A stretch of DNA of 64,000 nucleotides from NCBI GenBank assembly GCA_964446535.1, contig CAYUOR010000001.1:7283-71282 (forward strand), written 5' to 3'. The stretch comes from an uncultured Candidatus Saccharibacteria bacterium (GTDB lineage: Bacteria > Patescibacteriota > Minisyncoccia > Phycocordibacterales > Zambryskibacteraceae). The notes below the pieces were generated by a model that had not been told where the DNA came from, did not search any database, and worked only from the letters and a program-made list of their open reading frames with translations. Positions 21,227 to 48,295 of this stretch are shown one piece after another. The translations under genes were made by a program, and so were the position numbers. Each line of letters opens with the position of its first letter. The stretch's first letter is position 1.

Positions 21227-21493
21227 TTATCTTGACGAGCGGTTAAAGTGTATCGGCGCAGCTCTCTGTCTTATTTCGCAAGCTTCATCTCTAGTGAAGC
21301 CAAGAAGTTTGTAGTCTTCTTCTGCTTCCTGGTAGTCTACGTCGCCCTGCGCGAGAGAAAAGTCGATCGCACGAAGCAGGCAGGATCTGACGGTGTAAAA
21401 GTCACCGTGGGCAAGAAGTCTTTTGGCCGATGGGCGTGTTTCTGGAGTAAGATATTTTGACGCAAGAGATAAAAGCAGGTCTTCGTCATCCAT
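21227..21493 (-). CDS. Small acidic helical protein, paralog 2
   Basis: 88 aa. SD GGAGAGGTGAGG. Its start lies 3 nt after the stop of Cys-rich gene A (translationally coupled). An imperfect terminator hairpin follows at about 21190-21226. Confidence 0.5.
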   Translation of the reverse strand: MDDEDLLLSLASKYLTPETRPSAKRLLAHGDFYTVRSCLLRAIDFSLAQGDVDYQEAEEDYKLLGFTRDEACEIRQRAAPIHFNRSSR

Positions 21494-41831: not shown

Positions 41832-42665
41832 CTAACTTTGTCCGATATATTCGGCGTATTTTTCTATAATATCTCTCGTAACGGGACCAGCCTTCCCACT
41901 TCCTATTTCGTATTCATCTATCTTAACTATCGGTACAATATCCTTGAACGAGGCGGTTATAAATATTTCGTCAGCGGATTTTAATTCTGTCATCACAACT
42001 TCCCTTTCTTCGATTTGATAAGTGCCGTTCGTGAGTTCCAAAACTATTTTTCTCGTCACCCCCTCAAGAATGTTTTTATGCGGAGTTATAAGCGTGTTAT
42101 TTTTTACAAGAAAAATGTTGCTTGTTGCGCATTCCGAAACCTTATTTTTAGACACATATAAAATTTCGAGAGCATCTTCTTTCTTTTTCTTCTCTTGGAG
42201 AGATACGGCTCTAATGTAGTTTGTCGTCTTAACTTCCGGCATCTCGCGCAGATACTCGTGGGTTATAAGTTTGGCACCTTTTTGGTAATTCCCTTCAGGC
42301 AACTTTGACCACTCCTCAATGAGTATATAAAAGGTGGGTTTGGTAGGATTAAAGTCTATGCCGCCAAGAGTCTCTCCGCCGGTTAAAATTACTCTCACGT
42401 TCGCTCGCCTCTTAAGTCCGGACTTCTCGCTTATTTCTCCGATGATTTGACCGGCTTCCTTGGCGTTTATCGGCACTTTAAGACCTAAAATCTTTGCTCC
42501 TCCTTCAAGTCTCTGCCAATGGTCAGCAAGGCGCAGAGGTCTGCCTCCGAAAACGGCAATCGCTTCGTAGAGACCAAACCCCCGCATGAGTCCGATGTCA
42601 GAAATAGAAACTTTTGCCTCCTCTATAGGCAAAACTTGTCCGTCAAAATAAGCGAATCGTTTCAT
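41832..42665 (-). CDS. Class IV aminotransferase (branched-chain amino acid / D-amino acid aminotransferase family)
   Basis: Fold-type IV PLP enzyme motifs (GFGLYEAI; catalytic Lys region; SECATSNIFLVKNNTLITP). Confidence 0.7.
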   Translation of the reverse strand: MKRFAYFDGQVLPIEEAKVSISDIGLMRGFGLYEAIAVFGGRPLRLADHWQRLEGGAKILGLKVPINAKEAGQIIGEISEKSGLKRRANVRVILTGGETLGGIDFNPTKPTFYILIEEWSKLPEGNYQKGAKLITHEYLREMPEVKTTNYIRAVSLQEKKKKEDALEILYVSKNKVSECATSNIFLVKNNTLITPHKNILEGVTRKIVLELTNGTYQIEEREVVMTELKSADEIFITASFKDIVPIVKIDEYEIGSGKAGPVTRDIIEKYAEYIGQS

Positions 42666-42687
42666 TATTAATTGAGAGAAATTATAT

Positions 42688-42706
42688 CCTGCCTGCGCAG
42701 GCAGGC
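42688..42706. repeat. Perfect palindrome CCTGCCTGCGCAGGCAGGC, copy 1 (divergent promoter region)
   Basis: The identical 19-mer recurs at 47973..47991. This copy is followed by a second palindrome, GGCAAATTTGCC. Confidence 0.5.
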
Positions 42707-42753
42707 AAATTTGCCTTTAGATGCTTGCTCTAGTAGAGTAAAAATACTTTTTT

Positions 42754-43620
42754 ATGTCTAAACAGAAACTAATCCTTGTCACTGGTGGCGCCGGATTCGT
42801 CGGCTCTCATCTCTGTGAACGGCTTGCTAAGGATGGGCAGAGGGTGATCTCGCTAGATAACTACTTTACCGGCAGTAAAGATAACCACGTCACGGGAGTT
42901 GAATATCGCGAAGGCCATACGAAGGATATTGAAAAACATATTAAAGAAAGGCCGGATTTGATATATCATTTGGGAGAATATTCGCGGGTTGAAAAGAGCT
43001 TTGACGACACGGCGCTGGTCTGGGATTTAAACAAGACAGGCACTTTTGCCGTTCTAGAATTCTGTCGTAAGCATAAAATCAAGCTGGTTTATGCGGGTTC
43101 TTCGACAAAATTCGGTGACGGTGGACTTGGACGTGATCAGAGTCCTTACGCCTGGACCAAAGCAAGTAATACAGAGCTTGTGAGAAATTACGGCCACTGG
43201 TTTGGTCTACCTTATGCCATAACCTACTTTTACAATGTATATGGTCCCAGAGAGATTTCGCAGGGCGCTTATGCGACGGTAATTGGTATCTTTAAAGAAC
43301 AATTTAAAAACGGAAAATCAATAACTGTCGTAAGGCCGGGTACGCAAAAACGAAATTTTACCCATGTCGAAGACATTGTTGAAGGACTGGTTCTTGTTGG
43401 CGAAAAAGGAGAGGGGGACGATTTCGGTATCGGGTCAGAAAAAAATTATAGTATTATCGAGGTCGCAAAAATGTTTGGCGAAGAGATTAATATGCTGCCG
43501 GAAAGAGCTGGTAACAGAATGGAGTCATCCATAGATACCGCCAAGACCAAGAAGCTTGGTTGGAAAGCTAAAAAAGAGCTTGAGGAATACATAAAAAATT
43601 TTAAAAGAGGGAAAAAATAG
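42754..43620 (+). CDS. NAD-dependent epimerase/dehydratase (extended SDR, UDP-sugar 4-epimerase/decarboxylase-like)
   Basis: Rossmann motif GGAGFVGSH and the YxxxK catalytic pair (YAWTKASNTELVRNY). Confidence 0.8.
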   Translation: MSKQKLILVTGGAGFVGSHLCERLAKDGQRVISLDNYFTGSKDNHVTGVEYREGHTKDIEKHIKERPDLIYHLGEYSRVEKSFDDTALVWDLNKTGTFAVLEFCRKHKIKLVYAGSSTKFGDGGLGRDQSPYAWTKASNTELVRNYGHWFGLPYAITYFYNVYGPREISQGAYATVIGIFKEQFKNGKSITVVRPGTQKRNFTHVEDIVEGLVLVGEKGEGDDFGIGSEKNYSIIEVAKMFGEEINMLPERAGNRMESSIDTAKTKKLGWKAKKELEEYIKNFKRGKK

Positions 43621-47854: not shown

Positions 47855-48295
47855 TCAAGCTGGAACGAGCCCTGGATTCTTGGCGGCTTTTTGTAAAACT
47901 TTTTTGAGTTCAGTGAGGTTCAGATCTTCAAGTTTTTTAAATCGGATACAGCTTCGGCCGACACTGACTTTGCCTGCCTGCGCAGGCAGGCCGAGTTTTT
48001 TCGCGTGTTTTTCCGCCAGATACTCCCCTTTCTCAAGGGCGCAAACATAAATTGAAATATAGTTTTTCTGGCTGGCAAGCGCCACGATTGGCCAGTCAAT
48101 TATTTTCTTCGCGTAATTTTTATATTTGAAACTGCCATAGCCGAGCATGTTGTAGGCAAAATGGGGTTTAAGTTTCGGTGCTGATTTTTGGATAAACTTG
48201 TGCAGGAAATTTATCGCCTCTTTGCGCTCCTTTGGAACAGATGAGAGATATTCCGATACACTTTTAGCCTTCACCTTTTTAAACATATTTCCCAT
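47855..48295 (-). CDS. DUF1801 (YdhG/YjbR-like) domain protein
   Basis: VSEYLSSVPKERKEAINFLHKFI...YNMLGYG matches the DUF1801 pattern. The CDS contains the 20-bp palindrome. Confidence 0.55.
   Translation of the reverse strand: MGNMFKKVKAKSVSEYLSSVPKERKEAINFLHKFIQKSAPKLKPHFAYNMLGYGSFKYKNYAKKIIDWPIVALASQKNYISIYVCALEKGEYLAEKHAKKLGLPAQAGKVSVGRSCIRFKKLEDLNLTELKKVLQKAAKNPGLVPA
47972..47991. repeat. Perfect 20-bp palindrome GCCTGCCTGCGCAGGCAGGC, copy 2 (inside the DUF1801 CDS)
   Basis: Shares 19 nt with 42688..42706. Encodes ...GLPAQAGKV... on the minus strand. Confidence 0.5.

Follow-up and report, generated by a model that had tools for sequence, protein, structure and literature searches.

The window analysed here, a 64-kb stretch of DNA, carries the identical 19-mer CCTGCCTGCGCAGGCAGGC at two distant sites, which raises the question of what kind of sequence recurs so exactly and how it reached both places. 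An earlier note on this DNA had described a 19-bp perfect palindrome at 42688-42706 and 47973-47991 and had offered three explanations: an operator shared by a regulon, a small REP- or MITE-like element, or a recombination or methylation target. Both positions were verified and the 19-mer repeat stands, but the self-complementary unit is not the 19-mer but its 18-bp core, CCTGCCTGCGCAGGCAGG, hereafter PAL.

Two copies of the palindrome in the window

The two copies of PAL, both exact and unstranded, lie at 42688..42705 (copy 1), in the divergent region between an aminotransferase and an epimerase gene, and at 47973..47990 (copy 2), in frame in a DUF1801 gene, where the palindrome extends to 20 bp (47972-47991). 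Each half of PAL, CCTGCCTGC|GCAGGCAGG, has 9 nt, and the 18 bp amount to six codons with no stop codon in any frame. Computed folding gives a hairpin with a 7-bp stem (-11 kcal/mol as RNA and -6.5 kcal/mol as DNA). None of 100 dinucleotide-preserving shuffles of the window yielded a match, in agreement with the earlier judgement that such a recurrence is unlikely by chance. The 64-kb window holds no third copy with up to 3 mismatches allowed, and searches for gapped hairpin versions and split half-sites returned nothing beyond the two copies; a lone half-site 9-mer at 21376-21384 is within the chance level. Rfam and ARAGORN identified only tRNAs in the window, none of them at either PAL site. 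A longer shared repeat or a duplicated gene fragment was also considered and rejected, as the sequences that flank the two window copies, like those around 127 copies elsewhere, show no relationship to one another.

Copy 1 sits, as previously described, in the 88-bp region between the divergent genes for a class IV aminotransferase (41832..42665, minus strand; PF01063, E = 4.9e-44) on its left and an NAD-dependent epimerase (42754..43620, plus strand; PF01370, E = 6.5e-46) on its right, both outside the element. Two relatives (L148 and L149) have the same gene arrangement, with epimerases that are 86% and 84% identical, respectively. Their empty site reads ATTATAT|CAAATTTGCC, and the window has the 18-mer exactly at the bar. 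By this comparison, copy 1 is an exact 18-bp insertion with no target duplication next to a pre-existing flank, CAAATTTGCC (42706..42715), that both relatives keep without the insert. A second palindrome that had been reported immediately after copy 1, GGCAAATTTGCC (42704-42715), is real; it consists of this pre-existing flank and the last two G of the insert and is, therefore, partly a by-product of the insertion. The contig of the closest strain (L147; 97.9% identical, SRR22372533) ends 31 nt from copy 1 (L147:1, equivalent to window position 42737).

Copy 1 precedes the start codon of the aminotransferase gene by 22 nt. A sigma-70-like promoter match (TTGCCT-16 nt-TATAAT; 42681..42708, minus strand) was also found upstream of this gene; it is a consensus match only, at 10 of 12 positions, and shuffled versions of the region have a mean of 0.3 such sites. 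The -35 hexamer, TTGCCT, straddles the junction between the insert and its flank. Furthermore, alignment with the relatives places copy 1 within an ancestral extended -10 look-alike, TGATATAAT, which it splits by parting the TG from ATATAAT. The insertion appears to rebuild a promoter-like site by happenstance, and we infer from these motifs that the site may work as a promoter.

A perfect palindrome between divergent genes is also what the operator of a dimeric transcription factor common to a regulon would look like. An operator is expected at a conserved promoter position; PAL, however, is absent from the orthologous region of both relatives, which keep the surrounding promoter sequence, and no helix-turn-helix regulator adjoins copy 1 among the annotated neighbors. 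With copy 2 an in-frame insert and other copies inside the coding sequences of housekeeping genes in many phyla-level lineages, we regard an operator, including the shared operator of the earlier note, as highly improbable.

The host gene of copy 2 encodes a DUF1801/YdhG-like protein of 146 aa (47855..48295, minus strand; Pfam PF08818, E = 3.4e-12), a coding location that the earlier note had missed. Copy 2 adds the peptide LPAQAG to this protein, which reads ...KKLGLPAQAGKVSVG..., and the peptide is absent from all 24 of the closest DUF1801 homologues (73-88% identity), which read ...KL------GKVSVG.... At the corresponding DNA position, the closest homologue (L146) is empty and reads AAAAACTC|GGCAAAGT (CTC|GGCAAAG); the window has 18 extra bases at the bar. 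The two sequences are 94.1% identical over 1264 aligned positions and the 18 nt of copy 2 are the sole gap; thus, the insertion of copy 2 is younger than a species-level split. As for copy 1, there is no target duplication, and the placement of the insertion is ambiguous by only 1-3 nt at both sites. An AlphaFold2 model of the DUF1801 protein (mean pLDDT 89) positions the insert (residues 102-108) in a loop between a helix (98-101) and a strand (110-112), and copy 2 is thus predicted to add a six-residue surface loop.

The empty-site comparisons identify both window copies as recent, exact 18-bp insertions and exclude at either of them the short direct repeats for which the earlier note had proposed to look. 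Neither copy has a designed function. A pattern that the note had set against its own proposal, only two copies in unrelated contexts without conservation, is indeed seen in the window, but not as a sign of chance: two copies, unrelated contexts and strain-variable presence are the signature of mobility. Reading PAL as a methylation or recombination target would leave the insertions unexplained.

The stability of the predicted 7-bp RNA stem could be taken as a sign of a selected role as RNA (in a terminator, an attenuator or an mRNA-stability element), and the A/T-rich DNA that follows PAL makes a simple scan call it terminator-like. Intrinsic terminators, however, close a transcription unit with a G+C-rich hairpin and a run of T, whereas copy 1 precedes both of the divergent start codons and copy 2 falls within a coding sequence. 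Close relatives also do without PAL, and we give a selected RNA function very little credence.

Distribution and reading frame of the 18-mer

We scanned 596 Gb of species-representative genomes, one per species, for the exact 18-mer, a kind of search that the earlier note had suggested, and obtained at least 120 loci with unrelated flanks, compared to approximately 9 expected by chance (our own arithmetic, for uniform base composition). Using record titles as taxon labels, 71 of the 120 among the matches listed were Patescibacteria (WWE3, Microgenomates, Paceibacteria, Saccharibacteria, Dojkabacteria and others). Other carriers were Bacteroidota, low-G+C metagenome-assembled genomes (MAGs) labeled 'Gammaproteobacteria' and two cultured isolates, Litoribacter ruber KCTC 22899 and Rosettibacter primus 4148-Me; the few G+C-rich carrier genomes probably represent chance matches. 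Because the flanks of PAL copies are unrelated across genomes, the mobile unit is the 18-mer itself. Near-variants with up to 3 substitutions numbered 9 versus 157 exact copies in 1.2 Mb. The 18-mer was also present at 25 loci in viral contigs, most of them G+C-rich, so many of these copies may be chance matches.

The base just outside PAL is a pyrimidine in 79% of cases and, therefore, insertion favors purine|pyrimidine steps. At least 6 of the 8 flanking bases are complementary at 6 of 127 PAL sites, compared to 0.7% of control positions, although the numbers are small. At three sites (L065:1669, L069:437 and L077:380), PAL occupies the exact center of a longer, unrelated palindrome, with 8 of 8 flanking bases complementary, which hints at insertion into hairpin tips.

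Some Bacteroidota MAGs (Sphingobacteriales bin43, Saprospiraceae MAG-185 and others) carry PAL within larger repeats that have similar longer flanks. These larger repeated units (L012/L102, L004/L043, L033/L083/L040 and L105/L112) are unlike what is seen in Patescibacteria. Seven PAL-bearing loci also contain a second G+C-rich perfect palindrome, TCCGCCAGCTGGCGGA, with unrelated flanks (L066:2080, L082:1716 and 7274, L097:7451, L105:4963, L107:5739 and L112:5471); it is absent from the window. In one Bacteroidota MAG (L105 and L112), TCCGCCAGCTGGCGGA is 47-65 nt from PAL, inside the larger repeat. This second palindrome may be another family of micro-elements.

To score coding copies, we required a start-to-stop ORF of at least 150 codons with an unambiguous frame in loci of G+C below 0.52; the frame and coding calls are ORF heuristics rather than the output of a gene caller. 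Coding DNA holds 48 of the 104 PAL copies scored among the matches listed, and 40 of the 48 unambiguous coding copies listed are in the LPAQAG frame (p = 1e-12). The other two frames account for seven (PACAGR) and one (CLRRQ) of the 48. The hosts are ordinary, often essential genes: TopA, PolA, GyrB, DnaG, RecJ, ArgRS, CysRS, GatB, FtsW/RodA and Ddl, in addition to a UvrD/AddA-type helicase, a class II aminoacyl-tRNA synthetase, a Mur ligase and others. The distribution shows a selfish insert filtered by selection. The frame bias and the essential-gene hosts argue against an operator, a terminator or an artefact. Furthermore, a frame bias this strong, together with family lengths in multiples of 3 (see below), points to translation rather than an RNA role.

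Because most carriers are MAGs, PAL could in principle have been introduced during sequencing, library preparation or assembly. Such an artefact would not produce the frame bias or the purine|pyrimidine flank bias, and the flanks in the window are exactly contiguous with those of the empty sites. The carriers also come from many independent studies and assemblers (as judged from record titles and contig names), include the two isolates and have PAL at identical sites in independent samples (L131/L132, L136/L137 and L135/L138). We consider the probability of an artefact to be practically negligible.

GIY-YIG cassettes with the same ends

One locus (L070) connects PAL to larger elements. Its single HsdR gene contains three inserts with identical ends: a plain PAL, a 39-bp hairpin encoding the peptide LPAPQSEAARQAG and a 291-bp insert with an in-frame GIY-YIG domain, LPAPRPGQYCIYVLSC...SAARQAG. 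Among the matches listed, all three forms (PAL, miniature and cassette) are found together only at L070. A protein similarity search with the L070 GIY-YIG segment retrieved relatives that sit inside unrelated host proteins (HsdM-like, DUF899, NOV_C, MGMT directly after the PCHRV motif, a methyltransferase and HsdR), in all cases starting with LPAPRP... and ending with ...RQAG. The four cassettes of this set whose DNA bounds were read all have CCTGCCTGCGCCGCG ... CGCGGCAGGCAGG, of which the outer 9-mers are CCTGCCTGC ... GCAGGCAGG. Thus, joining the outermost 9 nt from the two ends of a cassette gives exactly PAL.

To extend the family, we scanned metagenomes for cassette ends 250-280 nt apart and recovered at least 120 loci, a set that, unlike the protein-retrieved one, was selected by its end pattern. 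Among the matches listed, 114 of 120 had an intact cassette in frame, with lengths of 279-303 bp that are always divisible by 3, on contigs with 34-67% G+C. The flanks define a cassette target GA|YG(R), read as Asp|Gly; among the matches listed, position -2 is G in 100, position -1 is A in 99 and position +2 is G in 93 of 113 cases. Hosts belong to 24 families among the matches listed and are dominated by restriction-modification and defense genes: HsdM (34), SNF2-like helicase (20), HsdS (11), HsdR (11), DUF1156 methyltransferase (7) and type IIG enzyme (6), the other hosts including MGMT, MsrB, RNase R and Fic. The cassettes fall into sublineages (282-bp vs 297-bp types) that go with particular host sites, a pattern expected of homing lineages (L157-L276). 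The best 150 matches in a scan of 1.84 billion representative proteins were mostly internal segments of proteins of 200-1100 residues, and 367 clusters matched at E <= 1e-10. A plasmid search returned no cassette, only distant free-standing YhbQ/YazA-type genes, and no GIY-YIG cassette was found in the viral contigs.

The cassettes encode a nuclease of the UPF0213/YhbQ type (1zg2, E = 4e-14) that also matches, weakly, the structure-specific nuclease Slx1. After RQAG, the cassette is mostly followed by Gly. The residues that mark an intein (an N-terminal Cys, Ser or Thr and a C-terminal His-Asn followed by Cys, Ser or Thr) are absent, so the cassette probably stays in the host protein. Among the matches listed, cassette loci also contain 46 miniature elements of 24-66 bp with cassette ends, 44 of which have lengths in multiples of 3, and the LPA...QAG frame is used by 32 of the 45 scored. 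Including PAL, the short forms make up a size series of 18, 24, 30, 33, 36 and 39 bp and upward.

PAL has the ends of the cassettes and their LPA...QAG frame, contains no stop codon and has a length divisible by 3. Given these shared features and the purine|pyrimidine preference, we file PAL as the shortest, ends-only member of the family and conclude that it is probably a non-autonomous selfish micro-insertion belonging to these hairpin-ended GIY-YIG cassettes. Its sites partly share the cassette target: GA|YG occurs at 15 of 127 PAL sites compared to approximately 2 expected (our own estimate), and the sites of the window copies, AT|CA and GG|CA, are both different from it. Exact 18-bp PAL was not found in the cassette-bearing loci (809 kb), and PAL-bearing Patescibacteria loci have almost no cassettes or miniature elements. 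A complete element bounded by PAL ends was likewise not found in the loci from Patescibacteria, where lone half-sites are at the chance level, nor was any GIY-YIG ORF found in the 64-kb window. Because the two sets of loci barely overlap, the link between PAL and the cassettes rests on the ends, the frame, the partly shared target and L070.

Mobilization of PAL in trans by a structure-specific nuclease is what we infer from these sequence features. The ends of PAL would pair as a hairpin or cruciform that a YhbQ/Slx1-type nuclease could recognize and move in trans, inserting it at purine|pyrimidine steps without target duplication. Selection would then remove the copies in the other two frames or at intolerant sites, favoring the LPAQAG frame and loop positions. 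No GIY-YIG enzyme is known to act as a transposase, and the mobilizer could instead be one of the RAYT-like Y1 genes found near cassettes (see below).

PAL could also be the footprint of an excised element, the cassette itself or a Patescibacteria-specific relative that left 9 nt per end; PAL copies would then mark past visits, and the 18-mer would not have transposed independently. The composition of PAL from the left and right 9 nt of the cassette agrees with this, as do the size series from 18 bp upward and the 40 of 48 coding copies in the cassette's own frame, which footprints of in-frame cassettes would give. However, the short forms in the 809 kb around cassettes are 24-66 bp long and never the 18-mer, and, because a 94%-identical relative has the copy 2 site empty, insertion and excision would have had to follow each other in a very short time. 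Copies of PAL in intergenic DNA and in other frames exist as well, and altogether a footprint seems unlikely to us.

Candidate mobilizers of another kind were found in the form of RAYT-like Y1_Tnp ORFs, one beside the HsdR gene of L070 and others at 8 other cassette loci, two of which have the ORF fused in frame inside host proteins. Hence, PAL could be a REP-like hairpin moved by a RAYT/IS200-like Y1 (HUH) transposase, with the GIY-YIG cassettes as cargo between hairpins. The established precedent is that of the REP/RAYT systems, in which Nunvar (2010), Bertels and Rainey (2011) and Ton-Hoang (2012) reportedly described hairpins that a dedicated enzyme moves. The Y1 ORFs, however, are not flanked by PAL-like hairpins, and a search of the window and of the 119 PAL-bearing genome loci other than L070 found none. 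They are part of type I restriction-modification operons, where such passengers may be common, and PAL is a perfect palindrome without the usual 5' tetranucleotide of REPs, with about half of its copies in coding DNA. We judge the transposase explanation to be less probable still than a footprint.

Free-standing RAYT-like Y1 genes occur in or beside cassette-bearing type I restriction-modification operons at L070:7479-7985 (minus strand), L274:4380-4979, L267:3-629, L191:8443-9120, L196:6874-7404 and L177:746-1378. An IS200-like Y1_Tnp domain is also present in frame inside a DUF1156 methyltransferase (L153:6478-8526), a protein that has a miniature element encoding DLPAPQSSAVRQAG as well, and a similar Y1 match was found within a long ORF (L234:3-2573). 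The fusions in L153 and L234 suggest that other nucleases or transposases may also live as in-frame inserts.

Among the matches listed, the only nucleases near PAL in Patescibacteria were free-standing YhbQ-type GIY-YIG genes and one HNH gene, mostly in one recurring tRNA-Gln context. Four of the 8 free-standing GIY-YIG genes are within 500 bp of PAL, but three of these four share the tRNA-Gln context and are, therefore, not independent. In five Patescibacteria genomes, a tRNA-Gln copy that is partial or disabled carries PAL at one and the same position, the step from G10 to U11 (L027:1724-2105; L110:389-760, minus strand; L037:3530-4013; L038:6720-7200, minus strand; and L042:362-487). The neighbors are a GIY-YIG gene (L027, L110 and L038) or an HNH gene (L037), plus an intact tRNA-Gln gene. 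We read this arrangement as a possible endonuclease module directed at tRNA, whose cleavage or insertion site PAL would mark.

Relation to known elements and significance

The Rickettsia palindromic elements (RPEs) are approximately 150 bp long and form ten families, with 44 insertions in R. conorii genes (PMC10969869). Like PAL, RPEs are palindromic selfish repeats that are found in frame in unrelated, often essential genes of reduced genomes, where they contribute a tolerated peptide. Unlike PAL, they are about eight times longer, restricted to one genus and without a known autonomous partner; PAL has 18 bp, is identical across very distant lineages (Patescibacteria and other phyla) and shares its ends with a nuclease cassette. 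Thus, PAL has the in-frame insertion into unrelated genes that defines RPEs but is not a Rickettsia element of ~100-150 bp. The GC clusters of yeast and fungal mitochondria (e.g., GC42) are short G+C-rich palindromes that multiply in A+T-rich genomes, have a putative AG target duplication, are constrained in structure and spread between species by flank recombination, with organelle endonucleases suspected as mobilizers (PMC4478555). In contrast to these mostly non-coding clusters, PAL has no duplication, is frequent in coding DNA and shows a strict frame preference. The PstI palindromes of Neurospora, which belong with these clusters, have an 18-nt core.

The REP- or MITE-like option of the earlier note holds insofar as PAL is a small mobile palindrome with recent, dispersed insertions, but not in the classical sense of either term. 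A REP is an imperfect palindrome, 20-40 nt long, that is extragenic, flanks a RAYT gene and is presumably moved in trans by this dedicated single-copy enzyme. PAL resembles REPs and REPINs in being a very short hairpin-forming repeat; it differs in not being confined to extragenic DNA and in that no RAYT gene flanked by the repeats was found in the window or the PAL loci. The resemblance to MITEs is that of a non-autonomous unit that keeps only the inverted ends of an autonomous element, and the series from cassette to 24-66-bp miniature to PAL fits this description. Unlike MITEs, however, PAL has no target-site duplication, has 18 bp that are ends only rather than ~50-500 bp with an internal non-coding segment, and has a candidate autonomous element that encodes an in-frame GIY-YIG nuclease instead of a transposase.

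In 2008, Elhai et al. are said to have described cyanobacterial SDRs of ~20-27 nt that are mobile, partly palindromic and found within other elements and genes. These very small dispersed repeats differ from PAL in sequence and phylum, and no nuclease cassette sharing their ends has been reported. The cassette, for its part, is similar to homing endonuclease genes and inteins in placing a nuclease gene in frame in conserved hosts, with sublineages tied to sites, and is set apart by its inverted terminal repeats, its Leu-Pro-Ala start and its very diverse hosts.

The literature searched, which was incomplete, contained no description of the 18-mer, of LPAQAG, of the cassette or of Patescibacteria palindromes or GIY-YIG elements of this kind, and an earlier description is possible. 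That the family in its entirety represents a new class of element is a credible possibility. In its fullest form, which we advance tentatively and with somewhat less than even confidence, the proposal is that PAL, the 24-66-bp miniatures and the 279-303-bp cassettes make up an undescribed class of mobile elements with hairpin ends that preserve the reading frame; that their autonomous form is a YhbQ/Slx1-type GIY-YIG nuclease, translated within its host protein, which recognizes the hairpin or cruciform of the ends and moves the element without target duplication; and that the 18-mer has dispersed through Patescibacteria and entered essential genes, where it adds LPAQAG loops.

If this is correct, the 18-bp PAL would be among the smallest mobile DNA units known, and the most reduced genomes (CPR) would be peppered, essential genes included, by selfish DNA shaped to be harmless. 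The YhbQ/UPF0213 GIY-YIG family, which is large and functionally unassigned, would be linked to a concrete activity and a DNA substrate. The in-frame residence of nuclease cassettes in restriction-modification and repair proteins would also bear on annotation and on domain insertion. In practice, the presence or absence of PAL is a sharp strain-level marker, and LPAQAG or LPAP...RQAG in predicted proteins should be treated as the scar of an element rather than as native sequence.
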